DNA from: a virus
Lineage: Duplodnaviria > Heunggongvirae > Uroviricota > Caudoviricetes
Virus record (IMG/VR): IMGVR_UViG_3300021400_000025
Span: 86,479-150,478 of that record
Direction: 5' to 3' (one strand)
DNA length: 64,000 bases
Shown: one piece after another, positions 12,238-61,146 of the stretch
Numbering within the stretch: position 1 is the first letter of the stretch
Layout: each line of letters starts with the position of its first letter
Notes under the pieces: model-generated
What the model was told of the DNA's origin: nothing
Database searches by the model: none
What the model saw: the letters and a program-made list of their open reading frames with translations, nothing else
Program-made: the position numbers and the translations under genes

Positions 12238-12822
12238 ATGTTCCACAGATACTATGGCGTTCCAGACGACGCGAAATACGGCGAGAAGTTCATGTCTCGT
12301 TTTCCAATCTTGTTCCAGGACAGGAAGAAGTCCATGCAGGAGACCTGCATGTGTTGGGGAATTGAATGCCCCAGGGGCTGGTGGTATATTCTGGATCAAC
12401 TATGCACGGTGCTTGAATTCCACAACATGGAGTTCGTCAAGAACCATGGAATAGCCGTAATCGCAGCACAGGTGAAGGAAAAGTTTGGAACTCTCAGGTT
12501 CTATTATGATGTACGTCCTGTTGACGAAAATGGAATTGTGAAGTATGAGCCTGATGAATTGCCTACTGACAAAGATAGAAACCGTATGATTGCGATGGAC
12601 TATCTGGGGATGCTTGCCGACCAGTACATCAGGGAAGCCGAGGACATGACTGAGAACACTTGCGCAAAGTGTGGAATTCCATTGGATAAGGACAACAAGG
12701 TTGAGACAAAGGGTTGGATTACCTATGTCTGCAAAGAGTGCGATGGAAAGCCCTATGATGACGAGGAGGATGCAGATGAAGAACCTGCAAGAGAAGCTGG
12801 CGAAGCTGAGAGAGTTTCTTGA
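12238..12822 (+). CDS. Cys-rich (zinc-ribbon-like) protein, about 194 aa
   Basis: Track ORF 12217..12822. The likely true start is the ATG at 12238, after an aaggagag SD and a tgtggtataat -10. There are CxxC...CxxC pairs. Confidence 0.55.
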   Translation: MFHRYYGVPDDAKYGEKFMSRFPILFQDRKKSMQETCMCWGIECPRGWWYILDQLCTVLEFHNMEFVKNHGIAVIAAQVKEKFGTLRFYYDVRPVDENGIVKYEPDELPTDKDRNRMIAMDYLGMLADQYIREAEDMTENTCAKCGIPLDKDNKVETKGWITYVCKECDGKPYDDEEDADEEPAREAGEAERVS

Positions 12823-13261
12823 CCTTGACGTGGAACTCAAGGAAGCCCTTGTGCCCATCATCAAAGACACCTATGACTACCATTGTGATGGGGTTGAGGG
12901 ATACGATTTCTCTGAAGATGGTAAGAGCATTGAGTGCCATTATTCCTACAGATGTCGTGGCGAGTCTGACACGGATTGGTGCAAAATTCCAATCAAGTGG
13001 CTTGAAGATGGCTATGACTACAAGGCAGACTATGAGGAAATGAGAAGGAAGTCCGAAGAGGAGAGGAAGCGCTGGGAGGAAGAGGAGAAGAAAAAGGCGC
13101 AGGAGCGAAAGGAGAAGGCTGAGTACGAAACCTACCTCAAATTGAAGGAGAAGTATGAAAATGCTGGGGACAACCACATTACGTCTGTATGGATGGAACC
13201 AGACCCCAACATGCCTAAACCCCTAATCATAGACATCGAAACTGGGAAGGAACTTTCGTGA
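12773..13261 (+). CDS. hypothetical K/E-rich coiled-coil protein
   Basis: Track ORF 12671..13261. It overlaps the previous gene, so the start is probably the ATG near 12773. TGA stop overlaps the next start (GTGATGG). Confidence 0.45.
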   Translation, partial: QMKNLQEKLAKLREFLDLDVELKEALVPIIKDTYDYHCDGVEGYDFSEDGKSIECHYSYRCRGESDTDWCKIPIKWLEDGYDYKADYEEMRRKSEEERKRWEEEEKKKAQERKEKAEYETYLKLKEKYENAGDNHITSVWMEPDPNMPKPLIIDIETGKELS

Positions 13262-13521
13262 TGGCAAAGCATGAGACTACAATATCATTGAGCGCAGCTT
13301 CCAAGAACCTAAGAATTGCGTCTGTGTTTTGCGCCATTGGTCTTGTGTTGATGGTGTGCCATGTGCCTTGGTGGGTGTGCACTGCTTTCTTCGCATTGTC
13401 TGGTGGATTTCTCTTGTCCATGCTCATGTGCGTATTGGATGTGCAAGAGTTCAAGATGAAGCAGAACCAGAAGATAATCGAATTGCTGTCTAGGATTGTA
13501 AATAAGAATAACAACAATTGA
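13258..13521 (+). CDS. small membrane protein with two predicted TM helices (holin-like topology)
   Basis: ORF track. Hydrophobic stretches VFCAIGLVLMVCHVPWWVCTAFFALSGGFLLSMLMCVL, then a charged tail. Confidence 0.45.
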   Translation: MMAKHETTISLSAASKNLRIASVFCAIGLVLMVCHVPWWVCTAFFALSGGFLLSMLMCVLDVQEFKMKQNQKIIELLSRIVNKNNNN

Positions 13522-13537
13522 CAACAAGAGGCTTATT

Positions 13538-13819
13538 ATGATGAAAGAAAGAACGATGAAAAGCAAGAGAATGATGCGAAATGTGTATGTTCTGGTGATT
13601 GATTCTAACAGCAGTGGTTCTGCCGAGGACATTTCCACAATCGTTTCAACCAGTGTTGATTCATTGATTGACTATGTCATCAACGAGGAACTGCCTGAGC
13701 AAGGTTATTCTCCTGAGGACATTGAGGAGATGGGCGCTGAGCTGGAACTTTCTGAACATTTGTATTGGGAAGATCCAGAGGGCATTAGGTATATCATCAA
13801 CGAATCGAAGATGATTTGA
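13538..13819 (+). CDS. hypothetical acidic protein (93 aa)
   Basis: ORF track. Confidence 0.45.
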   Translation: MMKERTMKSKRMMRNVYVLVIDSNSSGSAEDISTIVSTSVDSLIDYVINEELPEQGYSPEDIEEMGAELELSEHLYWEDPEGIRYIINESKMI

Positions 13820-13886
13820 CGACATTCATCAGAGTTCAAGATTCAGGTTCGGACTTCGGTTCGGACCTTTTCTTTTGTCGTTGAAT

Positions 13887-13897
13887 AATGGTAAATA
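13887..13897 (+). promoter_or_regulatory. late-promoter-like motif AATGGTAAATA, 28 nt upstream of ATG 13926
   Basis: Same motif as at 1980, 60071 and 61917. Confidence 0.4.
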
Positions 13898-13925
13898 CGC
13901 ATACAAAGACGAAAGGTGATTTGCC

Positions 13926-15509
13926 ATGAAGAACGAACTTGATTGCATATTGAAGAACGAGATTCTGGAGGGATGCATGGATTCCCTGTTGGAATTCTCC
14001 GAATCTGGCGATGGCTCTGCGGTGAAGGTGTATGGTAAGATTGCGGGATTGCCTTGCATTGGCAGGACATATTTCACCACGCAGAAGGAGTTGGATGTGA
14101 CGAACGAGGATGCCCAGACATAGATGATGCAGAAATATGGGGCGGAGACCTATGGCTCCTCTGCGCAATTGAGGCAATAGAGCGCAGATAGATAGAAGGG
14201 GACAGGAACTGAGACGGGGATTGGGTCTGTCGTGGACAGCAAAGACTCCTTGATAGATTGCTCGTTCAAGCCATTGATGAAGCTTCCTGTGAAGTTCCGC
14301 GAATCCATCTGGGGTGGGAATCCAGGCAAGGATTTTCAGGACAAGTGGCAGAAACTGGTTGAGTTGATACAGGGGAAAAGCAAAGACGAAAACTGGGCGA
14401 AGAGCAACCCCAAGATGAAGGAATTGGTTGGGAAGAGGTTTTCGCCTGGTTCTGGGGTTGATAGTCTGGACAACACCAAGCCGTGGAGCGAAGTGCAGAC
14501 CATATTCAACGACAAGGATGTCCAGGCGATGTTGAATCGGGAAAAAGATTTGAACAAGAAGTGGACTGAAGTCCGCAATGCGTGGAATGAGTGGAGTGAA
14601 TCTTCGGGTGGTGGCTCATCTGGCTCTTCTTCTGGTGGAAAGGGAGGTGGTTCTGATTCATCGAAATCGGGTTCTTCTGAATGGGATCCCAGATAGACAT
14701 ACAGGATAGACATCACCACGAAATTCGACAAGAACTGGTTTCAGCGAAAGTTCAAGAGTGGCATGCTCAACAAGATGATAATGGGTTTGAAGACGATGGC
14801 CATGGCGAATCTGGCAAGCGACAGCAAGAACGATAAGAAGGGTTACAAGTACACCGGAAACGAGATGCTTTCCCAGGACGAGCGGAAATTGGACAAAATC
14901 CAGTGGAATATGACGAACAAGGTGGCGAAGGACTACATCACTTATCTTCTTGGGTGGAGCAGAAAGAAGGAGTATTACATGGACGGTTCCCAGCCCAAGG
15001 CTGCATCCACTGCGGATCTTCGAGTTGATGCTGGCGTGGGGAAGAAGTTCGCAGACAAGGCGTTGAGCAATAGAGGCATATTGGGAAGGTTGAGATAGAA
15101 GCTGTTTTCTGGTGGTCAGTCCAACAATGTGGTTTCTGTGGCGTTTCAGTTGGCTGATTGGCGCGATGGATGGAAACTGGTGGAGGAGGATAAGAAGAAG
15201 GGTGGTGAGGAAGGATCTTCTGGTAGGGAGGATGGCGGAAAAGAGGGAGGTGGCTCTGCTGGCTCCGGTGGAAAAGATGGTGGTTCGTCTGGCTCAGGAT
15301 CAACTGGAGTGGGTGGAGGTGGATCGTCTGGGGCTGCAGGCTTGGGCGAGAAGGACATGGACAGTCTAATGACGCTTCTTCAACGGGTCAGGAATGTGGA
15401 GAAGGAGGTATATGGAAAGCAGATGGATGAATCCACATCCAAGGACAACAATGTGGACGGACTTGTGGATGAAGTTCTAATGGCGTACATAGGAGAGAGC
15501 AATGGCTAA
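13926..15509 (+). CDS. composite recoded ORF of about 527 codons with 5 in-frame TAGs (14121, 14178, 14193, 14694, 15096). Gly/Ser-rich linkers. Ends at TAA
   Basis: Track ORFs 13926..14123, 14232..14696, 14763..15098 and 15129..15509 are all in frame 0. Only TAG codons lie between them (verified). A TGA at 13917 closes the frame upstream. Confidence 0.5.
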
Positions 15510-26153: not shown

Positions 26154-26753
26154 ATGAAGATTGTCAACGAGATTGGGTTGAACAGGTTGTTCAACAAGCA
26201 TACCGAGAATGGCTATGTCATGGTGTCTGCTTGCCGCCATGACTGGAGCGATGACGATGAGGTTGAGAATCGCGAAATCAACAACATCAAGACGAAGGAG
26301 CTGAAGGAGGACATCCAGAAGGCCGGCTACCAGTACATCCCTGTCCAAGGTGGATTCGTTGAAGACGATGGCACCGAGGTTGTTGAGAGGTCGTTTCTCA
26401 TCGTCAACTTCAGAAACAAGTCCGGCAAAGGGGAGCCAGCCGGCGACTTCTCCAAGTTGAAGGATCTCGCAATCAGTCTGTGTGGCAAGTACAACCAGGA
26501 TTCAGTTCTTGTGGTTGAGCCCGGTGGCAAGCCAACCTACTACACCCGAGAGGGCGAGGTTGATGGTCAGTTCAATTCTGTTTCTGCAAGAGACGCGGCC
26601 CAGCAGTATTTCACCAGGATTGGTGGTGGAAGGAAGTTCTCGTTCATCGAGGGGGCTTCCCAACCAGGAACAATCAATGGAGTGCGTTCAAGGCGCATGA
26701 CTGGCGAGATTTGCGAGTTGGCCGGCTATGACAGGCGCAGGAAGGGAAAGTGA
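26154..26753 (+). CDS. hypothetical protein (199 aa)
   Basis: ORF track. SD aaggagaaacc. Confidence 0.5.
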   Translation: MKIVNEIGLNRLFNKHTENGYVMVSACRHDWSDDDEVENREINNIKTKELKEDIQKAGYQYIPVQGGFVEDDGTEVVERSFLIVNFRNKSGKGEPAGDFSKLKDLAISLCGKYNQDSVLVVEPGGKPTYYTREGEVDGQFNSVSARDAAQQYFTRIGGGRKFSFIEGASQPGTINGVRSRRMTGEICELAGYDRRRKGK

Positions 26754-37511: not shown

Positions 37512-38558
37512 ATGTGGAAAGGAAACAACGGCAAAATGATTGAAGTGGAGTCAAAGGCAAGCAGGGTCTCAATTCCAGTATCCAGAGCAGTGTTCTCGGA
37601 TTCTGCGATAAGCCTCTACGACATCTTCAACAAGGAGGTGTTTGACGATACTGTTTCTGTCCAAGATGGCTTCCAGAAGTTTGTTGAATTGGTGTATTCT
37701 GGATTCAGTTTCCAGCCACCAACGATGAACACGGTTCCAGTCAAGTTCCCAGAGAATGTCCCAGATGTTGACCCCAACATGGTCCTTGTGGCAGTGAGTG
37801 GTGGACTTGACTCCATAGCGCAGATGCTTTTCCTCAAGGAAAGTGGGCGTTCAATCGTTGCATACACGATGGCTAACATGAACCGAAGTTGTGGTGGTCA
37901 GGAACTCAAGGCGATGAAGGCTGTATGCGAGAAGGTTGGTGTTCCGATTGTTGAGGCGAGATACGTTGGCAACTTCAAGAAGGACAATCCATACAGAAAG
38001 CACTGGGCAGAGAACCCAATCAAGAACCAGATGATAATGGCAACGATGGTGGATTGGTGCATCGAGAATGGGTGCAGGACGATTAGCCTTGGAGAGAAGG
38101 ACAACTTCTTCCTCAAGGACTGCGTTCCAGGAACAAACTTCACCGACGCATCCGAGGTGTCGAGGACTTTCATTGAGTGCGTGAACAGACATGTTGGGAT
38201 TGACTATCTGACGATGGATTTGTCCATCACAAAGCTGGACGAGTTGAAGATTGCCATGAAGTATGGGGTTGAGGATCTTCTGTTCAGTTGCTTCTCGGCC
38301 CAATCCTCCAACAAGTGCCATGAAATGAACCAACGGAAGTATGGCATCACGTTGTGGAGGAACAACTGTGGATGCTCTTGCAGGAAGTGCGCACACTACA
38401 ACCTTCTTCTCCATTATGGTGGGATCAAGGCGTTCCCACAGGATTTCGTGGACGCCTGTTGGAGAAAACTCTACTCCACGAAGGAATTGAAAAACACGTT
38501 CAACCCAAGCATGGACGAAAAGACGAGGATGGAGAACTTGTTCAACTTTTCCGCGTGA
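37512..38558 (+). CDS. queC: PP-loop ATP pyrophosphatase, QueC-like (7-cyano-7-deazaguanine synthase family) with an N-terminal extension
   Basis: SGGLDS PP-loop motif, plus a C-terminal Cys cluster (CGCSCRKC) like the QueC zinc site. The length (348 aa) is atypical for QueC. Confidence 0.5.
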   Translation: MWKGNNGKMIEVESKASRVSIPVSRAVFSDSAISLYDIFNKEVFDDTVSVQDGFQKFVELVYSGFSFQPPTMNTVPVKFPENVPDVDPNMVLVAVSGGLDSIAQMLFLKESGRSIVAYTMANMNRSCGGQELKAMKAVCEKVGVPIVEARYVGNFKKDNPYRKHWAENPIKNQMIMATMVDWCIENGCRTISLGEKDNFFLKDCVPGTNFTDASEVSRTFIECVNRHVGIDYLTMDLSITKLDELKIAMKYGVEDLLFSCFSAQSSNKCHEMNQRKYGITLWRNNCGCSCRKCAHYNLLLHYGGIKAFPQDFVDACWRKLYSTKELKNTFNPSMDEKTRMENLFNFSA

Positions 38559-39590: not shown

Positions 39591-40843
39591 GACCCGCGCT
39601 GTATTCGCCTTGGCGAATCACCCCTACGTTCCATAGGTACTTTAAGATTTTTCTCGACAAGGTCCTTGATGTTCAACATGTTCTGTGCGGCATGGATGTC
39701 TCTGTCTTGTTCGTATCCACACTAACACTTGTATGTCCTATCATTCAAGGATAGTTCGTTCATCTTATGGCAATGAGGACACCACTTCGTTGTTGGGATG
39801 TACTTGTCCAATATGATGACATTATCAAGTTTCATCAACTTGGATTTGATTGTTCCCATGCAACTGTGTTGAATAACTTTTGACATTCCTTTTTGCTTGT
39901 GCCATTCTGCCAGTTGCTCGTCTTGTATCACGATTGTGTCATATTGCTTTAGCATATGAACTATCTTGTTTGCCTTGTCTTTTTTCTTATTCGTCAGCTT
40001 CTGGTACTGACGACGGATTCTCTTGATTGTCTTGTATCTCCTGTTTGAACCTTTCTTTTGACGTTGCAGTTTCTTCTGCAACATCTTGAGTCGTTCACTT
40101 TCTTCAACAGATACGTCAAGTTTCTCACCTTCTGAAGTCGTTATGTTCGTTTTGATGCCAAAATCCAGACCTATTTCCTTGTCGTTGGTTTTGGTTTTTG
40201 GCATCTTGTTCTTGTCTATGTAGCATGTCACCTTAAGATAATAGCCATCTGGTTTCTTCAACAAATTTGCATTGGCATATTCATCTACATTCGATAATTG
40301 ATGTGTTCCACGAACTAATATCTTGCCATGTATTCCTTGTATCTTGATCTTGTTTTCTGACTTGAAACTATATGTCTATCCATATTGCTTGAGTGGAATG
40401 CAATTCAATTCAGACTTGAACTGCAAGTTGCCAAATTTCTAATGTCCCCTTTTGACAAGTTGTATTATGGCCATTTGATTGGAGACCATTCTTGCCAAGA
40501 TTGCCTGCTTCTATGCTGCCGACAAGTATTTCAATTCAGATTGAATCAAGTTCTTGTCCTTGTCGTAGTGGTTTACTGTTTTGATGTTTGTGGAGTTGAT
40601 GTCGGATAATCTCAATCCAGATTGTTGATGCAGATTGAGGACATGATTGTAGAACCACTTTCCCTCAACAAAGAGCATGTCAAGTTCTTCGTGTTGGCGT
40701 TTGTTCAATCGTTTCTCTACAATCTTTAGTTCATATGACTTGACGACTTGGTTCTACCTGCGAAGTCTTGTTTGGCTTCGGGTTGCAATAATCTTGTTCT
40801 TCTTTTCGTCAGAACAGACCAATCTATTGTCAATATCCTTCAT
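39566..40843 (-). CDS. tnpB: IS605/IS1341-family TnpB (RuvC-like RNA-guided nuclease). Intact only if 5 in-frame TAGs (40754, 40511, 40439, 40376, 39722) are sense codons
   Basis: Manual minus-strand translation gives one frame from ATG 40843 to TGA 39566, broken only by TAGs. RuvC-I is EIGLDFGIKT, RuvC-II is VIQDEQL, the zinc finger is CPHC...C(TAG)CGY, and RuvC-III DRDIHAAQNMLNI lies after TAG 39722. Track ORFs 39722..40264 and 40511..40708 are fragments of it. Confidence 0.65.
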
Positions 40844-40982
40844 CACATATATTATTTACACAAATCTATACTAAAACTCACTATAATTCTTTACAAAAAT
40901 TCAAGAAAGTTGTATAATATTGATAGCGATTTACATGCGATACTAAAGATATCGCATCTATCTCGCCAGGTTCAATGTATAA

Positions 40983-41384
40983 TTGAACTGTGAAGCAATA
41001 GGACAGGACGGATACATGTACACAGTAAAGGCAAACATTCCACAGTACGAGCCAAAGAACGCGCCACCAAAGAGCCTCATGGACACCTTGAAGATGGACA
41101 AGTTCAAGGAGTTGATGTCGGGTATCGAGAAGTCTGGCGTGTCACCAGAGGAGAAGCAGTTTCTCAAGATAGCCGCGTTCAGGCATGTTGTGTTCAACTA
41201 TGGGAAGATTGCCGACTATTATGCCTGCGCCTCTCCCGAGATGCAGAAGCTGATGGAGGACTCCGCCCTTGTGATAATCGACATGGACGATGCGATTGCG
41301 AAGGGCTATGTGCGCCTTTCCGAGTCAATCAAGAAGATAGTGGCGAAAAGGCTCGCTGACGAGGGGAAGACGGATGCGAAATGA
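40983..41384 (+). CDS. hypothetical protein (133 aa)
   Basis: ORF track. A tgtataattgaac -10 lies upstream. Confidence 0.5.
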   Translation: MNCEAIGQDGYMYTVKANIPQYEPKNAPPKSLMDTLKMDKFKELMSGIEKSGVSPEEKQFLKIAAFRHVVFNYGKIADYYACASPEMQKLMEDSALVIIDMDDAIAKGYVRLSESIKKIVAKRLADEGKTDAK

Positions 41385-42246
41385 CTTCTGCATATTCTGT
41401 CTGACCTACAAGAGGCCGGACAACATGTACACGGACAAGACTCTGCGCGAGGCTGGGTATACTGGCGACATCCAGTACATTGTTGGGGACGATGATCCAA
41501 CCGTTGGAAGGTACATCGAGAAGTATGGGGCCGACAAGGTTCACGTTTTCAACAAGGAAGAGGTTGGAAAGACATTTGACACCTGCGACATAGAGGGTTC
41601 AAACAAGGTCATAGTGTACGCAAGGAACTATTGCTTCACCGTCGCCAAACAACTTGGGTTGAAGTATTTCGCCCAATTCGACGATGACTACGATAGGTTC
41701 GAGTACAGATTTCCAGTTGGGGAGAAGTTGAAGACAATCAACGTGAGGGAGTTCGATCAGATAGTTGACCTCATGATTCAGCTTCTTGACGACACCGGCG
41801 CCCTGACTTGCGCCTTTGCCCAGAATGGGGATTTCCTCGGAGGGGTTCAAGGGGACGTGACACACAACAGAATGAAGAGAAAGGCGATGAACTCGTTTTT
41901 CTGCCGAACTGACAAGCCATTCAAGTTCTTTGGAAGGATCAACGAGGACGTGAACGCCTACTGCACCCTTGGTTCAAGGGGAGAGCTGTTCTTCAGCGTT
42001 GTTGACGTTGCGCTCCACCAGAAGACAACCCAATCCAACAAGGGTGGGATGTCGGATGTCTATGTTGATGATGGCACGTACCTCAAATCGTTCTACACGG
42101 TGATGAACTGTCCATCTTTCGTGAAGATAGCTGCCATGGGGAACACCCCCGAGACAAGGCGCATACACCACAGGGTGTCGTGGGAGACTGGAGTTCCAAA
42201 GATAATCAGCGACAAGTACAGAAAGCCAAGGGAAGGATTGGATTGA
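41374..42246 (+). CDS. hypothetical protein (290 aa) with a DxD-like acidic motif (QFDDDYDRF), possibly a glycosyltransferase-like enzyme
   Basis: ORF track. The functional guess is weak. Confidence 0.4.
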   Translation: MRNDFCIFCLTYKRPDNMYTDKTLREAGYTGDIQYIVGDDDPTVGRYIEKYGADKVHVFNKEEVGKTFDTCDIEGSNKVIVYARNYCFTVAKQLGLKYFAQFDDDYDRFEYRFPVGEKLKTINVREFDQIVDLMIQLLDDTGALTCAFAQNGDFLGGVQGDVTHNRMKRKAMNSFFCRTDKPFKFFGRINEDVNAYCTLGSRGELFFSVVDVALHQKTTQSNKGGMSDVYVDDGTYLKSFYTVMNCPSFVKIAAMGNTPETRRIHHRVSWETGVPKIISDKYRKPREGLD

Positions 42247-42250
42247 CAAA

Positions 42251-43645
42251 ATGACGTATCTTGAACAGCACAGAGACGAGATATTCAAGAAGTACAGCGA
42301 TGAGGAGTTGTCAAAGGACGTTGACAACTACGTTTCGGGCAAGGGGAGGATGACCAAGTTCATCAACCACTTCTTTGAGGAGTGCATCTTCAACTGCAAG
42401 GACAACAGACTGAAGCTGACTCCAATGGAGGCGTTCCAGAGGGACGATATCCTTGACAAGGTGCGTTCCCTTTTCGCAAATTCCCCAAAGCTGTACACAG
42501 GCTCGGAGATTGAGAACATCAAGAAGCACTTCAGCCTTGGATGGATTGGGTCAAGGAAAGTTGCGAACTTCTGTCCAAAAAACGCAAGGACAATCTACCA
42601 GAGGTACTTCAACGACCTCAATGGTCTGAACATCCTTGACACCTCCTGTGGATTCGGCTCAAGGATGCTTGCCACGATACTGAATGGGGCCAACTACTAT
42701 GGGTTCGATCCAAACAAAGAACTGTATGGATGCCTCAAGAAGAGCCACCAGTGGCTGATTGACCACAAGAAGGTTCCAGAGGAAAGAGTCTGCGACATAC
42801 ACTGTTGTGGAAGCGAGGAGCATGTTCCAGAACTTGATGGGAAGATGGATCTCTCGTTCACCTCCCCCCCATACTTCAACGTTGAGTCCTACTCGGACGA
42901 TAATGGCGCATCAACGAGGAACCTTGACAACTACGAAGGATGGCTGTGCGAGTTTGTCGCTCCAACCCTTGTGAACACCTACAAGTACCTCAAGGTTGGT
43001 GGGATTGCGATGATCAACATCAAGAACCTGACAAGGGGACAGAAGAAGCCTCTGTACGATGACTTCATGCGTGGGTTCCAGGCAATTCCTGGGTTCGAGT
43101 ACGTTGAGACTTTCTCCATGAAGCATCAGCACAAGAGGACGCTCAAGGAAGACATGACCTATGTTGGGTTCGAGGAGCCTGTGATGGTGTACAAGAAGGT
43201 GAAGGACGAAGACCCCGACCTTGAGAAGGTGAAAGCCGCGTTGACAAGTGGAATCGACACGTCAAAGCAAGCAAGGAAGTCAACAAGGAAATACGCCCCA
43301 GATTCATCCAACACCCAGATTGCCAAAACTGAATCCAGAAAGAAGCAGCCATTCCAGTTGATAATGGACGACATCTCGGGGATTGACCCAAGGACATTGG
43401 GCAAGTTGATGGTTGAGTTGAAGAAAAAGGACATTGGGGTTGAGGTTGTGCATGGCGATGAATGGCTCTACAAGAAGCCAGATGTTGTCTACAAGCTGTG
43501 CGAGGGACTTGATGTCAAGTTGAACAAGTTCAAGAATCTCGATGGATCCATTGTTGAGAAGTACATGGGCAGGAACAAGCTGGTCAGACTCCAACCCGGG
43601 GAGAAGCCAACCTTTGAGCAGATTCCCCCTTTACTGTTCGGTTGA
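42251..43645 (+). CDS. DNA amino-methyltransferase (N6-adenine or N4-cytosine)
   Basis: Motif I LNILDTSCGFGSRM is a SAM-binding FxGxG-like motif. Motif IV is TSPPYF (the (D/N/S)PPY motif). Confidence 0.7.
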   Translation: MTYLEQHRDEIFKKYSDEELSKDVDNYVSGKGRMTKFINHFFEECIFNCKDNRLKLTPMEAFQRDDILDKVRSLFANSPKLYTGSEIENIKKHFSLGWIGSRKVANFCPKNARTIYQRYFNDLNGLNILDTSCGFGSRMLATILNGANYYGFDPNKELYGCLKKSHQWLIDHKKVPEERVCDIHCCGSEEHVPELDGKMDLSFTSPPYFNVESYSDDNGASTRNLDNYEGWLCEFVAPTLVNTYKYLKVGGIAMINIKNLTRGQKKPLYDDFMRGFQAIPGFEYVETFSMKHQHKRTLKEDMTYVGFEEPVMVYKKVKDEDPDLEKVKAALTSGIDTSKQARKSTRKYAPDSSNTQIAKTESRKKQPFQLIMDDISGIDPRTLGKLMVELKKKDIGVEVVHGDEWLYKKPDVVYKLCEGLDVKLNKFKNLDGSIVEKYMGRNKLVRLQPGEKPTFEQIPPLLFG

Positions 43646-46677: not shown

Positions 46678-46720
46678 TTGGCATAATCTGAATCCAGAAT
46701 ATGTTCAAGACCTCCTCGAA

Positions 46721-46795
46721 GCAATCAAGGTTTTGTTGATGAAATCAATAACCCCCTTGACTCCTGAGGGGGTTTTGTGGTATACTGTAAGTGTT
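46721..46795 (+). promoter_or_regulatory. operator-like palindromes (GCAATCAAG, TTGAT-gaa-ATCAA) followed by an early promoter whose -35 lies inside a CCCCC/GGGGG hairpin with a following TTTT
   Basis: Near-identical 45-bp element at 52951..52990. The CTTGATTGCATCAAG palindromes at 60731..60762 are related. Confidence 0.5.
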
Positions 46796-46846: not shown

Positions 46847-47377
46847 ATGTACAAGTTCATTCTTACCGCCAAGAATCGCGCCGACCTCATCAATCTCTTG
46901 GTGAATACTGCCAAGGTGGATGTCCAGAGGGTGAAGTGGGATGTCAATTCCATCACTCGGTCCGATGATGATGCCCACTGCGAGGACGAGTGGGATTTGT
47001 GCGACCTTGTGGATGCCGTCAAGTTCCATGAGGTTGACAACGCCATCATGGGTGGGGATGTGCCTGTTGGAGGTTTGGTGGTTGTCTGCGATGAGGAGAC
47101 GAACCCATCCTGGGGTTTCGTGTGTGGGAATGGCAACTCCTGGTACAAGGTGTATCTTCGTCCTGAGGTTGTCCATGCAGTGCTTCTTGCCGTCCATCCC
47201 AATGCCAAGTATTTCATCGTTGGTGGCAAGCGTGCGCATGTGTTCACCAACAAGACAGATTGTGGCAAGTGGTTGGAGGAAGGTTTCGCTGCTTGCGAAG
47301 GTTCGGAACAGCGCCGTTATGCGTCCATGATGAACCAACTGGACTCTGGCAAGATGTTCATTGACTATGACGCATGA
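46847..47377 (+). CDS. hypothetical protein (about 176 aa)
   Basis: Track ORF 46832..47377 (TTG start). ATG at 46847. Confidence 0.5.
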   Translation: MYKFILTAKNRADLINLLVNTAKVDVQRVKWDVNSITRSDDDAHCEDEWDLCDLVDAVKFHEVDNAIMGGDVPVGGLVVVCDEETNPSWGFVCGNGNSWYKVYLRPEVVHAVLLAVHPNAKYFIVGGKRAHVFTNKTDCGKWLEEGFAACEGSEQRRYASMMNQLDSGKMFIDYDA

Positions 47378-47425: not shown

Positions 47426-48385
47426 ATGGGAATCACGCTTCCGAAACTTCCAAAAATCCGCTCGTTTTTGTCAGGTGCCAACTCCTCTGCATCTGGACTA
47501 GCCAGCATTCCTAGAAAACTCAAGGTCAAGAAACAGCCAATTGAGATTGTTCCACCTCCTGAATGGGTTGAGAAGATTGATGGGTATTTCGTGTCGTCCT
47601 TCATGTGGCATGAATCGGGAAGGTTCGGTGGTTGCTTTGTTGTCAAGTATGTCCCCTATGATGACTGCAGTGCTTCCAGGAATTGGGATTGGGGCTTTGT
47701 GAAAATCTACGCCTCTGACGATATGAATGGAATGCCATTTGTCCAGATGAAGGGGATATGGAAGGAAATCCACGATTGCGAGAGGACATATGACATCACG
47801 GAAGATGGAAGAATCTACAATGGCTTTGGTGGATTTCCATCGGACGACGACATAAGGGACGCAATCTACGACATAGGCTCAATGTACCATGATTGGAGGG
47901 ATTTCCCAAATGCGCAAGATTGGGACACGGTGGATAGATTGCATGAGGCGAAGAACGCAGTTGACAGAATGCGAGTTGAGGCGAAATATGGCTGTGGGCA
48001 GAAGAACATTGACAACTTGCGCAAGAAGATAACGGAAATTCAGACCCAGATTGCCGATGCCGAGAAGGACCTCAACGAAATGTACGAGAAGGCTGCGGAG
48101 GGGATGAACCTCCTTGAGCAATATGGGATTGTGGTGAACCTTGACGATGAGCCAAAGGAATCAGAGAACGTGGTTGTGGATTATGACATTTCAAGCTTAT
48201 ATCCACACGACAGTCTAAGGTTCGTTGGAGAAGCCAACATAGTGCGGCTGGCCCATGGTTCATATAACGTGATCCCAAAGCCGTTAAACCAGCATCCAAA
48301 TTCCGGAGACATGGTTCATGACCCTGGTAATGGATTGACTGCGTTGTATACAGATACAGGGAAGTGGGAGGTTTTGAATCCATGA
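47426..48385 (+). CDS. member A of a 3-gene tandem paralog family (319 aa)
   Basis: Shared blocks with the other two members: PPEWVEKIDGY, MKGIWK, W(R/L)DFPNA and a C-terminal coiled coil ending MNLLEQYG(I/V)(V/K)V(N/D)LD. Confidence 0.55.
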   Translation: MGITLPKLPKIRSFLSGANSSASGLASIPRKLKVKKQPIEIVPPPEWVEKIDGYFVSSFMWHESGRFGGCFVVKYVPYDDCSASRNWDWGFVKIYASDDMNGMPFVQMKGIWKEIHDCERTYDITEDGRIYNGFGGFPSDDDIRDAIYDIGSMYHDWRDFPNAQDWDTVDRLHEAKNAVDRMRVEAKYGCGQKNIDNLRKKITEIQTQIADAEKDLNEMYEKAAEGMNLLEQYGIVVNLDDEPKESENVVVDYDISSLYPHDSLRFVGEANIVRLAHGSYNVIPKPLNQHPNSGDMVHDPGNGLTALYTDTGKWEVLNP

Positions 48386-49062
48386 GCAGTTCGTTTGCAA
48401 AACCCCCAGATGGAATGTCTCATCTGTTCTACCACGACATCCAACCACCAGATTGGATTGATCTGTTTTCAGGATATTCGATGAATTCATGCAAGTGGAG
48501 GAAGTGTGGAACCGCAGGGACAGTCATTGTCGCCAAATATGTCTCCATTGAGTCATTTGGCATGTTCGCAAAGGTGTATGCAGTTTCATCAGACCTTGCC
48601 ACGCCATTCTCCAACATGAAGGGGATATGGAAGACACTGCATGGCCTTTCAGAGAAGAGGTCAATTGGATATTCCATTTCAGAGGATGGCAAGGTGGTTT
48701 CATCTGACGGATTCTCGCATCCAACCGACCTTGAGATTGACAAGGCTGTGTACGACACAGTTGCGTTGTACGAGAACTGGCGGAAGTTTCCACAAGCCCC
48801 AACCCTTGAAATCGTGAAGAAACTCATGGCCGCGATGGAGTCTGTTGACAAGATGAGGTACGAGGAATCGCACAAGTCAATCCATAACGGCATTGACTTG
48901 ATGAGGGGGAAAATCAAGTCGCTTCAGAAGCGCATTGCGGATTCCGAGAAGGAACTGAACGAGATTTACGAAAATGCCGCCGACTCCATGAACCTCCTTG
49001 AGCAATATGGGGTCAAGGTGGACTTGGACAATATGCCAGAATTAAAGGAAGCTGACACATGA
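48364..49062 (+). CDS. paralog family member B (232 aa)
   Basis: PPDWIDLFSGY...NMKGIWKTLHG...MNLLEQYGVKVDLD. Confidence 0.55.
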   Translation: MGGFESMSSSFAKPPDGMSHLFYHDIQPPDWIDLFSGYSMNSCKWRKCGTAGTVIVAKYVSIESFGMFAKVYAVSSDLATPFSNMKGIWKTLHGLSEKRSIGYSISEDGKVVSSDGFSHPTDLEIDKAVYDTVALYENWRKFPQAPTLEIVKKLMAAMESVDKMRYEESHKSIHNGIDLMRGKIKSLQKRIADSEKELNEIYENAADSMNLLEQYGVKVDLDNMPELKEADT

Positions 49063-49080
49063 AACCACTTTACTTCCACC

Positions 49081-50130
49081 ATGTGGGGTTGTATAATTGC
49101 TATTGTCATGAGCATAAGGAAACCAAGCATATGGGGATATGATACAGCCCCAAACAACATCGTTTCAAGATATGACTGGAACGTTGAGCGTCTCGGGCCT
49201 TTTCGGACATGGGTAGTCAACAAGCCAAAATTCATTCCAACTCCTGATTGGGTTGAGAGGATTGAGGGATATTCAGCCGAGGCGTTTGACATAAGCAATG
49301 ATCCCTCCTATGACAAGGAGAAGATTGTGGTCGTGTGCTTCAAGCCCAATAGAACTTTGGGAGTTGGGTTCGCCAAGGTGTATGTGGCAGACAAGGGCAT
49401 GAAGAATGCGTTTCCCCAGATGAGGGGCATATGGGGGGAAACCAAATCCAGAATGCCCTTCGCCGAACACGCACTTGATCACCATGACATCTCAAGATGC
49501 CAGATTGACGATGATGGTAGGATTTCAAGTTCGTTTGGAATCCCCGACATGCCATCCCTCATGGATGTTGTCCAGGAAATGTACACGGTGTGGCTTGACT
49601 GGCGCGAGTTTCCAAATGTGGGCGAGTATCAGATGGTGAAGAAGTTGATTCAGGCGAAACAAGATGTTGCCAAGATGCAGAGTGAGATGTCCACCAACCG
49701 AATCAATGGCAAGATTGAGGACATCCGCCAGGAAATCCAGGAATCTCAGTTGAAGATTGCCGAACTTGAGAAGGAATTGAATGTGATATGCGAGAGGGCT
49801 GCCGATGCCATGAACCTCCTTGAGGAGAATGGCGTGAAGGTTGACCTTGATGAGAAGCAGAAGGAGGAGGAGGAAGGCAAGAATGATTGGATTGTTGGAA
49901 TGGATCATTCTGGCATAAGCCATGCGCGTCCCAGTCAAGGAGTCATAATAGACTGTGGAAACATGACGACAACCTTGTCACCAGACTTGTTTCAGTTGAG
50001 CAAAGAGGAGTTGGATGCAATCCAAACGGCATGGGGTGATTATTCGTCATGTCTTACGGTTGATGACAGTGTTTCCCCATTTACGACCACATCCGGCGCG
50101 TCATGTACATCTGCATCCAGCGCGTCATGA
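49081..50130 (+). CDS. paralog family member C (349 aa)
   Basis: TPDWVERIEGY...QMRGIWGE...MNLLEENGVKVDLD. Confidence 0.55.
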   Translation: MWGCIIAIVMSIRKPSIWGYDTAPNNIVSRYDWNVERLGPFRTWVVNKPKFIPTPDWVERIEGYSAEAFDISNDPSYDKEKIVVVCFKPNRTLGVGFAKVYVADKGMKNAFPQMRGIWGETKSRMPFAEHALDHHDISRCQIDDDGRISSSFGIPDMPSLMDVVQEMYTVWLDWREFPNVGEYQMVKKLIQAKQDVAKMQSEMSTNRINGKIEDIRQEIQESQLKIAELEKELNVICERAADAMNLLEENGVKVDLDEKQKEEEEGKNDWIVGMDHSGISHARPSQGVIIDCGNMTTTLSPDLFQLSKEELDAIQTAWGDYSSCLTVDDSVSPFTTTSGASCTSASSAS

Positions 50131-50704: not shown

Positions 50705-51388
50705 ATGAAAATGGGAACAGTGGAAATATTGGGAAACACGGAATCAAAGCCAATCACCATGATAGGTGAGATGGCGGGGATATGTTGGGGTGCAGATACA
50801 TCTGACGATGGCAAGAACCACAAGAGGGGCGTGGATTGCATCAAGTCGAACCACGGAAGGGCTTTGGAATATCCTTCCATATATCTTGTGCTTGATGGCT
50901 ATTCTGCCAAGGTGATACGCGAGTTCTACACACATATAATTGGGAATACACGTCTTCAAGCCTCCACCAGATACATAGACTATTCAAAGTGCTTTGATGT
51001 GGTTGTTCCAAAGTCGGTGGCTGTGAATGACGAGGCGTTGAAAACATGGAGGGAGTTCATGGCAAATGTTCCAGCCACAATCCGGAAGTTGAAGGAACTT
51101 GGCATTCCAACCGAAGATGCAACTAATGTATTGCCATTGGCATATGTCACCAAGATTGTTGTCAAGATGAATCTTCGTTCCTTGATGAACATGGCGGAAA
51201 TGAGGTTGTGCAATCGAGCCTATTGGGAATTCAGGGAATTGATGAGTGATATCTTGACTGAACTTGCGAAGTATTCTGACGAATGGGAAGAACTCATATA
51301 TGATCTGAAGGTGTTCAAGCCAAGGTGTGAATTGCTTGGCTACTGCCCCGAGACAAGGGGTTGTGGGAAGAAGAACAAGAAGGAGTGA
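50705..51388 (+). CDS. ThyX-like protein (flavin-dependent thymidylate synthase family, divergent)
   Basis: The 227-aa length fits ThyX. REFYTHIIGNTRLQASTRY aligns to the ThyX signature RHRxxxxxxxSxRY, but RHR is replaced by YTH. Confidence 0.45.
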   Translation: MKMGTVEILGNTESKPITMIGEMAGICWGADTSDDGKNHKRGVDCIKSNHGRALEYPSIYLVLDGYSAKVIREFYTHIIGNTRLQASTRYIDYSKCFDVVVPKSVAVNDEALKTWREFMANVPATIRKLKELGIPTEDATNVLPLAYVTKIVVKMNLRSLMNMAEMRLCNRAYWEFRELMSDILTELAKYSDEWEELIYDLKVFKPRCELLGYCPETRGCGKKNKKE

Positions 51389-52741: not shown

Positions 52742-52938
52742 GTAACAGAGTTGTTGCTATATTTCTTGCAATCTTCTTGGGATGGTGTGGCATACACAAG
52801 TTCTACTGCCACAGGGTGTTTCAGGGAGTCTTGTATTTCTTCTTCTGCGAAACCGGAATCCCTTGGCTGTTTGCCATAGTTGATGCAATCAGGTATGCGT
52901 TCATGGACGATTCTGAATTCAATTGCAAATACTCTTGA
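52738..52938 (+). CDS. TM2-domain membrane protein
   Basis: FLGWCGIHKFY matches the TM2 (GxHxFY) signature. Two TM helices. Confidence 0.55.
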   Translation: MSNRVVAIFLAIFLGWCGIHKFYCHRVFQGVLYFFFCETGIPWLFAIVDAIRYAFMDDSEFNCKYS

Positions 52939-52950
52939 CCCCCCCCCCCC
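52939..52950 (+). repeat. poly-C homopolymer (12 C) immediately after the TGA of the TM2 gene
   Basis: Seen directly. It is an expanded form of the ACCCCC element that precedes the -35 in the promoter family. Confidence 0.7.
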
Positions 52951-53030
52951 ATTGATGCAATCAAGGTTTTGTTGATTTCATCAACAACCCCATTGACTTA
53001 CCGACCAAATTATGGTATACTATAGATGTT
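52951..53030 (+). promoter_or_regulatory. operator-like palindromes (TTGAT-gca-ATCAA, TTGAT-ttc-ATCAA) followed by an early promoter (CCCCATTGACTT-N17-TATGGTATACTATAGATG)
   Basis: A copy of the element at 46721..46795. Confidence 0.5.
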
Positions 53031-53046: not shown

Positions 53047-53214
53047 ATGATGGTGTATGAAGTCAGAATGAAGAACACGGCAAGTGGCAGAACGAAGGTT
53101 CTGCGCGTGGATGCCATGGACTGCATGGATGCCCATAGGCAAGCCCTGATGAGCATGGGTTCGTTTGGGCATTGGACTATTGTGGACTCGAAGTTGGTCT
53201 CCGTGAAGTATTGA
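53047..53214 (+). CDS. small hypothetical protein (55 aa)
   Basis: Track ORF 53026..53214. ATG at 53047 after SD caaggagaaaagcc. Confidence 0.4.
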   Translation: MMVYEVRMKNTASGRTKVLRVDAMDCMDAHRQALMSMGSFGHWTIVDSKLVSVKY

Positions 53215-53228
53215 AAGGATAATGGACA

Positions 53229-53993
53229 ATGAACCTTGGAATCCCAGATTGTTGCCCCGTGTGTGGGGGCAAACTTGAAATCATCACGTCAAAGGATGGC
53301 GTGAAGAACCTGTTTTGTGTGAACGAAAAATGCCCTTCGCGCTTCAACGAGCAAGTATCCGCGTTCTGCGAGAGGCTTGGCATCATGGGCGTTTCCAACA
53401 CAACCCTTGAGAATTGGGGCATCAAGACCATACAAGACATAGTGGATTTCAAGCCCAATCCAGCGTACAAGAACGAGGTGAAATTTGCCGAGGAACTTGA
53501 CAAGAAGATGTGGAACGCCAGCAAAGAAAGCATCTTCATCGCGTTGTCCGCGCTTGTGTATGGCGTTGGAAGAAGGGAAATGAAGAAGTTCTGGGACAAC
53601 TGGGGTTCTGGTTGCCTTGACAGTCTGATTTCAATTGAGAACCCATCCGTGAAGGAGCAGATGATTATGGACTCGTTGAAGGTTGTCAAGGAGGCGTATT
53701 TCTCCATTGTTGACAATCCGAAGTACAACGAGCCGAAGGTGGTTGAAACCCCCAAAGTGGATTCAAGCAAAGGGAGCATCTGCTTCACCGGCAAACTTGA
53801 AACCATGACCCGTTCTGTTGCCCAGGACAAGGCGAGGAAGCTGGGCTACGAAATTGCGGAGTCCGTTGCGAAGGGGCTTGGCACATTGGTTGTTGCTGAC
53901 GCCGGACTGAAGGGTGAACCATCGTCAAAGCTGAAGAAGGCGCAGAAGTTGGGAATTCGCATCATGAGCGAGACCGAGTTCAACGCGCTTTAA
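53229..53993 (+). CDS. ligA: NAD-dependent DNA ligase C-terminal module (Zn finger, HhH, BRCT), encoded as a separate gene
   Basis: CPVCGGKL...C.NEKCP is the LigA-type Zn finger. The C-terminal ICFTGKLETMTRSVAQDKARKLGYEIAESVAKGLGTLVVADAGLKGEPSSKLKKAQKLGIRIMSETEF is a BRCT domain. Confidence 0.7.
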   Translation: MNLGIPDCCPVCGGKLEIITSKDGVKNLFCVNEKCPSRFNEQVSAFCERLGIMGVSNTTLENWGIKTIQDIVDFKPNPAYKNEVKFAEELDKKMWNASKESIFIALSALVYGVGRREMKKFWDNWGSGCLDSLISIENPSVKEQMIMDSLKVVKEAYFSIVDNPKYNEPKVVETPKVDSSKGSICFTGKLETMTRSVAQDKARKLGYEIAESVAKGLGTLVVADAGLKGEPSSKLKKAQKLGIRIMSETEFNAL

Positions 53994-56536: not shown

Positions 56537-57697
<1,161 letters not shown>

Positions 57698-60087: not shown

Positions 60088-60360
60088 TATGATTGAGTAC
60101 CAATATATACCTGACAGCAAGATATGCGTGTCCATGATGAAATTCTCCATAGACGAAACCACGGACACCATACATTAGGTTGCCATTCTGGGTGGATGCC
60201 ATGGCAATTTCGCCGCCATAATGAAACTTCTCAAGGGCAGAAAGGTTCAGGACGTGATCCAGGAACTTGAAGGCATTCAATGCGGCAGGAGAGGCACATC
60301 CTGTCCAGACTAGATTGCCAAGGCGTTGAAGAAATATGTGGATGGTGAGATTTCGCATTG
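60088..60360 (+). CDS. hidden 90-codon ORF with 2 in-frame TAGs (60175, 60310), directly behind a late motif (ttggtaaatactgat ATG). Ends at TGA
   Basis: Manual translation. It is invisible to the track because the TAGs cut it into pieces shorter than 60 aa. Confidence 0.4.
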
Positions 60361-60417
60361 ATTATTGTAAATAATACCACAAAGACCCCATGTCTTTTTC
60401 ATTAGAGGTATATTACA

Positions 60418-60735
60418 ATGGCAGAATTGACAGAGAAGAAATTTGGATATGTTGTGAATTCACCACATCATTGCCATCCACCATGTCCTCCACCACCCAG
60501 GCCAATTCCTCCATCCATGACCGTGAAGGATTGGATGGAGTACATCAATTCCTACATTGATGTCCGCGCCCGTCAGATTTACGACAAGTTGAAGAAGCTG
60601 ATTCCTGGGGGTGGATCCAGTTCAGAGGTCTGGCCCAAGGATTTCATCTTGTTGAGGGATATAAGCACCAATCAGGTGTATGAAGTCTATATGGAGAATG
60701 GGTCTTTGTCTTCAAGACCACATCAGGGTTCTTGA
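60418..60735 (+). CDS. Pro-rich hypothetical protein (105 aa)
   Basis: ORF track. A late-like motif ttattgtaaataata lies 44 nt upstream. Confidence 0.5.
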   Translation: MAELTEKKFGYVVNSPHHCHPPCPPPPRPIPPSMTVKDWMEYINSYIDVRARQIYDKLKKLIPGGGSSSEVWPKDFILLRDISTNQVYEVYMENGSLSSRPHQGS

Positions 60736-60762
60736 TTGCATCAAGATTCTTGATTGCATCAA
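60731..60762 (+). promoter_or_regulatory. two copies of the 15-bp perfect palindrome CTTGAT-tgc-ATCAAG
   Basis: Seen directly. The same half-site as the operator-like elements at 46721 and 52953. Confidence 0.45.
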
Positions 60763-60822
60763 CCCATATTTGAACAACATGGCTGGAAAATTGTTTTGTT
60801 GAAGGACAATCCCAGCCATTTG

Positions 60823-61080
60823 TCATCTAATCTTCCATCCATCCCATATGTATTGGGAAGACTCTTGAAACCATTTCACGTTTTTCTGGGGGATTGGGTC
60901 CTTCCCTGCTCTGTCAAGTGAATTGGTTGATATTGGACCCACAGCTTCAATTTTGGGGGGTTCATTGATTGCTTCATGTTCATTCGGGTTGTTTTTCTCT
61001 TGATTGATGGCTATTGCAGTGAACAATCCTGTCAATATTGCCGCAACCACACCCAGTATTTTCGCCTTGTTGAACTTCAT
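60823..61080 (-). CDS. small membrane-anchored or secreted protein (85 aa)
   Basis: ORF track. N-terminal hydrophobic helix. A late motif on the minus strand lies 30 nt upstream. Confidence 0.5.
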   Translation of the reverse strand: MKFNKAKILGVVAAILTGLFTAIAINQEKNNPNEHEAINEPPKIEAVGPISTNSLDRAGKDPIPQKNVKWFQESSQYIWDGWKIR

Positions 61081-61110: not shown

Positions 61111-61146
61111 ATATTTACCATTTTCAACAGATTATTGTAAATATAC
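61111..61146. promoter_or_regulatory. divergent pair of late-promoter-like motifs (minus AATGGTAAATAT, plus TTATTGTAAATATAC)
   Basis: Same arrangement as at 1959..1990. Serves the genes at 61080(-) and 61183(+). Confidence 0.45.

Follow-up and report, generated by a model that had tools for sequence, protein, structure and literature searches.

Phased palindrome pairs near promoters of a rumen jumbo phage, a candidate operator gained by one sub-lineage

An uncultured jumbo phage from the rumen carries clustered copies of a 13-bp palindrome, TTGAT-N3-ATCAA, which are non-random, intergenic, phased, conserved above background and gained by insertion. Most likely, the palindrome pairs are the docking site of a DNA-binding regulator and were acquired by this sub-lineage only. 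Among the more specific explanations we lean, with modest confidence, towards an operator for a candidate dimeric regulator, probably a repressor. The palindromes stand on firm statistics and represent a lineage-specific, operator-type cis element; such elements are already known, and the instance is new (a literature search found no mention of the motif).

Results

The sequence analysed here is a 64,000-nt stretch of an IMG/VR virus record (IMGVR_UViG_3300021400_000025, positions 86,479–150,478; hereafter, the window); parts of two assemblies from a single sheep-rumen metagenome sample (ENA ERZ28612966, SHIW14-1 scaffold_7, 416,990 bp; and ERZ1756080, NODE_700, 418,130 bp) have the identical sequence. 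Neither a megablast search with the 46–54 kb segment nor a tblastn search with a 746-aa open reading frame returned a cultured phage, and the phage DNA ligase matches those of known phages at only 30–32% identity. Relatives in IMG/VR (L001–L004) are syntenic and stand on contigs of 202–434 kb. The lack of a similar cultured phage, taken together with these large syntenic relatives, identifies the source as an uncultured jumbo phage of 417–418 kb. Nearly all genes of the window lie on the + strand and most of their proteins belong to no family; the recognizable ones specify a split NAD-dependent DNA ligase, ThyX, an RNA ligase, DNA methyltransferases and glycosyltransferases, and a degenerate TnpB (IS200/IS605 OrfB) gene occupies 39.7–40.9 kb. 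A topoisomerase gene and a sigma-factor-like gene are located just upstream of the window.

TTGAT-N3-ATCAA occurs six times in the window, against 0.41 copies expected, and is the commonest of all 5-N3-5 palindromes there. The sequence-only reading that had singled out these palindromes made its case depend on a frequency above that of shuffled sequence; the excess is large, with 0 of 100 shuffles reaching six copies, so the motif is real. Exact copies (TTGATNNNATCAA) begin at positions 46736, 52952, 52972, 60732 and 60750, forming three intergenic clusters, and a sixth copy stands alone within a gene at 3153; a fourth cluster is found 1.4 kb past the window end. In an extended sequence comprising the window, 8 kb upstream and 9.7 kb downstream (81.7 kb of the 418-kb genome), the two half-sites are separated by exactly three nucleotides in all seven copies and by none of the other spacings from N0 to N8. 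Six of the seven exact copies fall within or at the edge of non-coding DNA, which makes up 10.6% of that sequence. In the clustered copies the half-sites are invariant and the central triplet is constrained, being always GCA/TGC or GAA/TTC, which defines the motif as TTGATG[C/A]AATCAA in either orientation (degenerate scan pattern, TTGATKNMATCAA). The lone copy (TTGATTCAATCAA, 3153–3165, inside gene 2987–3994) has the centre TCA, unlike all others, and is for that reason most likely the single copy expected by chance. With one mismatch allowed, the window holds 22 copies against 6.8 expected; one-mismatch copies in the 81.7 kb divide into 18 coding and 3 non-coding, in proportion to coding length and without intergenic enrichment.

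At locus 1, the proximal palindrome (TTGATGAAATCAA, 46736–46748) is complete and ends 8 nt 5′ of the −35 hexamer of a sigma-70-type promoter on the + strand (TTGACT-18-TATACT, 46757–46786), which drives a 176-aa gene (46847–47377) and the thyX-containing operon. Twenty base pairs upstream of it, the distal site (TCGAAGCAATCAA, 46716–46728) is degenerate and retains only the usual centre, GCA, and the right half-site ATCAA (46724–46728; tcgaaGCAATCAAgg). Since the left half at this position reads TCGAA, locus 1 does not contain two pairs. The proposal of two half-site pairs at each of three loci thus holds for loci 2 and 3 and has to be amended for locus 1, where one full palindrome is accompanied by a right half-site (gcAATCAAgg). 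A 6-bp G+C hairpin followed by TTTTG (46753–46772) overlaps the −35 element of the locus 1 promoter.

Locus 2 contains two full sites, a distal one (TTGATGCAATCAA, 52952–52964) and a proximal one (TTGATTTCATCAA, 52972–52984), the latter identical in the related contigs L213, L214 and L215. They precede a second sigma-70-type promoter on the + strand (TTGACT-17-TATACT, 52993–53021), which drives a 55-aa gene (53047–53214), a C-terminal DNA-ligase fragment (53229–53993) and the genes downstream of it. Both promoters named in the sequence-only reading are real matches, each with a TG-extended −10 element. The near-identical 45-bp block said to end in the promoter agrees between loci 1 and 2 at 37 of 45 positions, and three of the eight differences are accounted for by the inverted centre of the proximal site. 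Within the block, a 33-bp unit is made up of the two 13-bp palindromes as inverted ends around GGTTTTG. Directly 5′ of the inserted block is a C12 homopolymer (52937–52948), which is C5 or C4 in block-carrying relatives; one Logan contig ends within this run. A one-mismatch copy (TTGATGCAATCAG, 52880–52892, centre at about −142) lies in the 3′ end of the TM2-domain gene and is probably coding sequence with a chance likeness to the motif, as relatives carry TTGACGCAATCAG at the same coding position.

Locus 3 lies in the 87-nt gap between the convergent genes 60418–60735 (+) and 60823–61080 (−), and no promoter is present in this gap. Its two sites (both TTGATTGCATCAA, at 60732–60744 and 60750–60762) are an 18-bp tandem duplication, and the first of them includes the TGA stop codon of gene 60418–60735. 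Two perfect CTTGAT-tgc-ATCAAG palindromes had been described here; the first site does extend with its flanks to such a 15-bp palindrome (CTTGATTGCATCAAG), but the second does not (CTTGATTGCATCAAC). On the 3′ side of the sites, a long hairpin (core ATGGCTGG...CCAGCCAT, 60771–60825) between the convergent genes probably serves as a bidirectional terminator; in relatives, this gap contains another hairpin and zero palindromes. Locus 4, outside the window (window-equivalent 65355–65387; 13341–13373 of contig L162), comprises an exact site at window-equivalent 65375 (L162 13361–13373) and a half-site, ACATCAAGG, 20 bp upstream. The exact site includes the stop codon of a glycosyltransferase gene and takes the −35 position of a −10 element of the family type (GTATAATATAAC) upstream of a 72-aa gene. 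We also considered TTGAT as the −35 hexamer of alternative promoters, a reading rejected on inspection: no well-spaced −10 element was seen, barring a doubtful 20-nt spacer at locus 4.

Relative to start sites inferred from the −10 hexamers, the site centres lie at about −51 and −71 at locus 1, −50 and −70 at locus 2, and −32 and −52 at locus 4, so that 20-bp steps are kept within and between these loci, whereas the sites of locus 3 are 18 bp apart. All four loci begin 0–44 nt past the stop codon of a + strand gene, and two of them include the stop. The promoters belong to a family of about 12 near-consensus sigma-70-type copies in the window (ACCCCC-TTGACt-N17/18-TGtGaTATACT-ATAGGTGT), only two of which (46757 and 52993) have palindromes, along with one promoter beyond the window. 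A reading of the upstream sequence as an UP element was discarded, the segment from −38 to −59 being unlike the A/T-tract consensus on inspection.

Most relatives keep the promoters and genes without the sites, from which it follows that the block is an insertion. Specifically, L001–L004 have orthologous genes and the same promoters without the intergenic sites; in relatives, neither the regions preceding the 55-aa and 176-aa genes nor the gap between the convergent genes contain palindromes. The locus 2 block is absent from L001–L003 and from ten metagenomic contigs identified by way of 55-aa gene homologues (L204–L212 and L216), and is present in L213–L215; two contigs identified by way of homologues of a 105-aa gene (L217 and L218) likewise have the orthologous genes and promoters but no palindromes. 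Compared with L204 and L209, the block is a 37–46-nt insertion between the stop codon of the TM2 gene and ACCCCATTGAC, with ACCCC on both sides in the alignment. In L213, L214 and L215, which are closer contigs from other samples, it is almost unchanged. Across the window, L213 and L214, the block varies in 1 of its 33 columns (at the final position of the distal site, where the base is A, T or G); 0 of 8 columns vary from the block to the −35 hexamer, 5 of 12 in the promoter spacer and 10 of 25 in the 5′ UTR. The difference between the block and the spacer plus 5′ UTR (15 of 37) is significant (Fisher p = 1.5e-4) for one locus in three contigs, which represent two distinct sequences besides that of the window. 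This conservation argues for constraint on the locus 2 block, although a recent lateral exchange of the block would look alike.

Beyond these relatives, exact-block scans of IMG/VR returned a chance match or nothing, and tandem-motif scans of IMG/VR and the JGI metagenomes gave, among the matches listed, no relative, nearly all being coding ‘LDxIK’-type repeats or unrelated palindromes. A tandem-site scan of 185,579 GTDB species genomes found 38 scattered matches, mostly coding repeats, with no taxon-specific regulon. In Rfam, no family matched the palindromes; a tRNA was the sole match.

A small helix-turn-helix (HTH) protein encoded nearby, the binder to be looked for according to the sequence-only reading, was not found among the approximately 134 genes lying between −8 and +74 kb. 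For these genes, the precomputed Pfam tables contain neither an HTH nor another DNA-binding family apart from a phage sigma factor, in the form of weak Sigma70_r2/r4 matches on a protein of 260 aa encoded upstream of the window, and Pfam and PHROGs scans run directly on the neighbouring genes were empty. The genes that follow the sites encode a 176-aa Cys-rich protein, a 55-aa Gp2/epsilon-like protein and a 72-aa membrane protein, with no match to an HTH family. Between 42 and 64 kb, no lineage-specific gene co-occurs with the block, every gene having a homologue in a block-less relative. If the regulator is phage-encoded, it sits in the other ~80% of the 418-kb genome; alternatively, it is a host protein.

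The 55-aa gene was examined as an autoregulated repressor and rejected, because the gene and its promoter are without sites in ten related contigs and because of the fold predicted for its product. The structural model (pLDDT 71.5) has a beta-beta-alpha-beta fold whose best neighbours, none of them significant, include T7 Gp2 (TM 0.78/0.83), the RNA polymerase epsilon subunit YkzG and ribosomal proteins. These weak matches suggest a fold like that of T7 Gp2 or RNA polymerase epsilon and not a DNA-binding fold.

Discussion

Several properties of the palindromes converge on recognition by a DNA-binding protein with two-fold symmetry: the half-sites are invariant, the centres occur in both orientations, the pairs are phased and in register with promoters, and the copies are restricted to intergenic DNA and conserved. 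From these properties we infer binding by a protein, its dimeric state and the sign of regulation. The proposal of a dimeric repressor or activator site thus gains from the symmetry, phasing, promoter register and conservation of the sites, and loses from the failure to find a binder and from the promoterless locus 3; on this balance the sites may act as a ‘regulatory switch’, as also proposed, and of repressor and activator the former is favoured. The operator reading is further weakened by the non-DNA-binding fold predicted for the product of the locus 2 gene and by the recent, near-identical insertions: for copies so similar and absent from most relatives, recent copying fits as well as selection.

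Under the operator reading, the candidate regulator would recognize a specific sequence with two-fold symmetry, and its gene could belong to another part of the phage genome or to the host. As the sites of a pair are 18–20 bp, or about two helical turns, apart, two dimers would be placed on one face of the helix, where their binding could be cooperative. The pair at loci 1 and 2 lies in the zone usual for the C-terminal domains of the RNA polymerase alpha subunits (about −50 and −70), whereas at locus 4 it replaces the −35 hexamer and at locus 3 it marks the junction of convergent transcription units. The likeliest effect would be selective repression or roadblock insulation of a few operons, including those of thyX, the ligase and the glycosyltransferase region, leaving some ten sister promoters unregulated. 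Repression or insulation appears more likely than activation, given that the locus 1 and locus 2 promoters already approach the consensus and have an extended −10 element, so that activation is hardly needed, and that the locus 4 site lies on the −35 position. A roadblock function would also explain locus 3 and the position of the loci so soon after stop codons.

Known operators offer partial parallels. The C-protein operators of restriction–modification systems (the C-boxes of C.PvuII and C.AhdI) consist of two palindromes of the 5-3-5 type, about two turns apart and at or just upstream of the −35 element; they precede the C gene, and a small HTH protein occupies them cooperatively in the form of two dimers. 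The phage pairs resemble them in their 18–20-bp separation at four loci, three of them promoter-linked, but differ in their half-sites (TTGAT/ATCAA versus GACT/AGTC), in being spread over four loci instead of one and in the proximal sites of loci 1 and 2, which stop 8 nt before the −35 hexamer; C-boxes are followed by an HTH gene and a restriction endonuclease gene, whereas no HTH gene follows any of the phage sites. Lambdoid operators of the Xre/Cro type (OR/OL) likewise place multiple palindromes on one helical face beside phage early promoters, a likeness that implies cooperative dimers and temporal control. They are 17 bp long, lie over the −35 and −10 elements and flank repressor genes, whereas the phage sites are 13 bp long, mostly upstream of −35, distributed over at least 19 kb and without an adjoining repressor gene. 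Finally, the phage sequence TTGA-N5-TCAA shares the 13-bp T-N11-A geometry of LysR-type boxes (MetR, TGAA-N5-TTCA), which also come as dyads about 20 bp apart upstream of a promoter (around −65 and −45). LysR-type activation sites are usually degenerate, however, whereas both phage dyads are perfect, and no LysR-type gene, divergent or otherwise, is present nearby; LysR-type regulators encoded by phages are unusual.

The most serious competitor, which we nonetheless judge unlikely, is a short interspersed repeat of the REP/BIME or mini-MITE kind, spread by insertion or gene conversion, with no dedicated regulator and only incidental effects on transcription. The phage sites share with REP/BIME elements, miniature palindromic insertions and the PeSL cassettes of T4-type phages their extragenic palindromes in several near-identical copies, their location at gene 3′ ends or between convergent genes, their insertion polymorphism and their link to highly conserved early-promoter modules. 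Such a repeat would account for the 37–46-nt insertion at locus 2, its presence or absence among relatives and the ACCCC on both of its sides, which resembles a target duplication or microhomology; it would equally account for the 33-bp unit with 13-bp inverted ends (matching at 12 of 13 positions), the four loci just past or including stop codons, the pair in the convergent gap (a frequent REP position), the near-identity of the copies, their absence from most relatives and the degenerate TnpB gene in the window, together with the coincidence that TTGAT serves the IS200/IS605 element ISDra2 as target and TAM (PMC8612924). The stems, however, measure only 5–6 bp, well below REP or MITE hairpins (typically at least 8–10 bp) in both length and strength, the copy number is low (four loci in 81.7 kb) and the register to three promoters is fixed in multiples of 20 bp. 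Also against an interspersed repeat, the half-sites lack compensatory or G-U variation, the block is more conserved than the flanking non-coding DNA, flanking repeats are not evident at loci 1, 3 and 4, neither TTGAT nor ATCAA adjoins the presumed end of the TnpB remnant, and no intact or cognate transposase was seen in the region examined. If the repeat explanation were true, the units would rank with the smallest interspersed palindromes on record for a phage. A hybrid of the two ideas, in which the 33-bp unit is itself a tiny mobile ‘operator cassette’ that in jumbo phages jumps or is copied to the 5′ edges of conserved early promoters and to the ends of genes, seems to us improbable and is offered as speculation. 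It would change which operons answer to a regulator, and it may be connected with the IS200/IS605-TnpB remnant of the same genome, given that ISDra2, the best-studied relative of that element, employs TTGAT in both roles.

Equally improbable in our estimate is a role at the RNA level, with small tandem hairpins at the 3′ ends of upstream transcripts serving mRNA stability, termination or an RNA-binding protein. The placement of all four loci at or just past the stop codon of a + strand gene would suit such elements, as would the larger structures predicted at locus 1 (−32.2 kcal/mol, z = −3.3) and locus 3 (−37.3 kcal/mol, z = −4.8) and the terminator-like G+C hairpin with a T tail after locus 1. 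Yet one palindrome alone would give only a 5–6-bp stem, rich in A/U and closed by a 3-nt loop; at loci 2 and 4 the fold does not exceed that of shuffled sequences (z = −1.4 and +0.1), no compensatory changes occur and no Rfam family matches. Judged as intrinsic terminators, the palindromes are A/T-rich and without a T tract, and the hairpins at 46753–46772 and ~60771–60825 are separate elements. Moreover, the loop triplet is reverse-complemented between copies, which alters an RNA loop and leaves the DNA site intact; invariant half-sites with a centre that can stand either way round fit recognition of double-stranded DNA by a symmetric protein, not an RNA element. Very unlikely, in turn, is a box for a global regulator of the host, of the CRP/FNR type, or for another host factor such as IHF, through which the phage would sense host physiology. 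The FNR consensus of the CRP/FNR family, TTGAT-N4-ATCAA, is palindromic with the same 5-bp half-sites, but the spacer here is 3 bp in seven of seven copies, N4 is absent from the 81.7 kb and the sites come in phased pairs; the constant N3 spacing excludes an FNR box. FNR boxes are centred near −41.5 (class II) or at −61.5, −71.5 and so on (class I), most usually at −41.5 or −61.5; the centres inferred for the phage sites from the −10 hexamers are −50/−51, −70/−71 and −32/−52. We know of no CRP/FNR dimer that tolerates a half-site pair turned and shortened by one base pair. For IHF, the consensus WATCAANNNNTTR (AATCAAGGTTTTG) is matched in the window by the distal sites of loci 1 and 2, but the match is lost in L213 (ATCAT) and L214 (ATCAG) and absent from loci 3 and 4; against any host regulator, the scattered matches among species genomes form no regulon specific to a taxon. 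Chance similarity or a by-product of base composition has a negligible probability: it suits the atypical intragenic copy at 3153, close to the expectation for one window, and is already refuted for the clustered copies, which are paired, intergenic, N3-specific and beyond the reach of the shuffles, in a block kept in independent samples.

Transcription control in uncultured jumbo phages larger than 400 kb is almost unexplored. A readable promoter family to which a phased palindrome pair has been added, and which lacks it in sister phages, represents a clean natural gain of a regulatory module, and the 33-bp block provides a short DNA bait with which to fish the regulator from a genome of mostly family-less proteins. 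In an unrelated small phage (L032), a similar pair occurs just 5′ of TTGACA, with no regulator gene adjoining.

Operator-like layout in an unrelated phage and at locus 2

A layout similar to that at loci 1 and 2 of the window, with a pair placed just 5' of a -35 element, also occurs in L032 (IMG/VR 3300025669_002315; region 2249-2330), the contig of a small, unrelated phage. There, TTGATGAAATCAA-TTGA-TTGATTACATCAA ends 4 nt before a TTGACA-N17-TATACT promoter, and a portal-like gene follows the pair and promoter; the adjacent genes include no regulator.

In the window, the inserted operator block of locus 2 is immediately preceded on its 5' side by a C12 homopolymer run (52937-52948). At this position L213 has C5, and L214 and L215 both have C4; all three are related contigs that carry the block. 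A Logan contig from the same sample ends within the C12 run, which is either a variable-length, slippage-prone tract or a weak spot of the assembly.

Palindrome-like sequences elsewhere

The thyX gene of operator-less relatives holds an exact TTGATTGCATCAAG, coding for G-V-D-C-I-K (L204 8278, L206 6933 and L209 4311); the same position in the window (50832-50844) reads TGGATTGCATCAAG through a synonymous GTT-to-GTG change, a single difference that gives no ground for inferring selection. Among the 5-N3-5 palindromes, TGATG...CATCA ranks second in frequency owing to the 18-bp unit CATCAAGTGATGAACCAT, which forms approximately four perfect tandem repeats (7923-7992) within a 673-aa gene (5999-8020).

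A degenerate TnpB (IS200/IS605 OrfB) gene occupies approximately 39700-40850 on the minus strand, where matching reading frames span about 1.1 kb, with only a 160-aa ORF (39722-40204) still intact; some 800 nt of non-coding DNA come after the remnant. TTGAT/ATCAA was looked for beside the presumed end of the TnpB element and none was found. In ISDra2, the best-studied TnpB element, TTGAT is both the target and the TAM (PMC8612924), and this pentamer is identical to the half-site of the window palindromes.

Other promoter-like and terminator-like elements

A second promoter-like motif, TG(G/T)TAAATA(T/A), distinct from the TTGAC/TATACT family, is found at 1959-1990, 40853-40869, 60358-60376 and 61112-61142, and at 2083-2127 of L217, a relative without the operator sites. 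Divergent genes are separated by this motif as an inverted pair, TATTTACCAT-N11..24-ATGGTAAATA, which is kept in L217 and looks like back-to-back extended -10 elements. The motif may be read by a phage sigma-like factor encoded on L163 (4758-5540), a contig extending the window.

In several TTGAC/TATACT promoters, the -35 hexamer lies inside the loop of a short, T-tailed G+C hairpin (CCCCC-TTGAC...-GGGGG-TTTTG). Such hairpins are located at 24888-24907 and 46753-46772, at approximately 9695-9725 of L004, another relative without the sites, and upstream of 961 in L207, a related contig lacking the block. The arrangement has the appearance of a single module in which terminator and promoter are merged, and it resembles the promoter-early stem-loop cassettes in T4-type phages.

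Gene content around the putative operators

DNA-modification and sugar genes are densely present in the phage genome, including TAGT (PF20691), N6/N4 and D12 methyltransferases, a QueC/tRNA-methyltransferase-like protein, an S-AdoMet lyase and five glycosyltransferases (window 26154-26753, 37512-38558 and 41374-43645; 12381-18787 of L162, which also extends the window, and 2650-4315 of L163). Hypermodification of the phage DNA is possible and, if real, would be relevant to any protein-DNA binding test.

Three tandem paralogous genes of 319, 226 and 349 aa (47426-50130) directly follow the operator promoter of locus 1, with DNA identity of 64-87% in repeat blocks D1 and D14. The operator-bearing operon of locus 2 begins with a 55-aa gene (53047-53214) that has 40 homologues among rumen metagenomes. 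The AlphaFold model of its product adopts a beta-beta-alpha-beta fold (pLDDT 71.5), and its nearest structural neighbours, all weak (E at least 0.03), include T7 Gp2 (TM 0.78/0.83), an inhibitor of host RNA polymerase, and the RNA polymerase epsilon subunit YkzG. The 55-aa product is possibly a small protein that binds RNA polymerase. Two separate genes, arranged in reversed order, encode the split NAD-dependent DNA ligase (53229-53993 and 56591-57697), the C-terminal part (Zn-finger/BRCT) preceding and the adenylation and OB part following 2.6 kb downstream; in L211, a related contig without the block, an intein-like segment and a DUF7487 gene break up the adenylation gene further (12585-15300).
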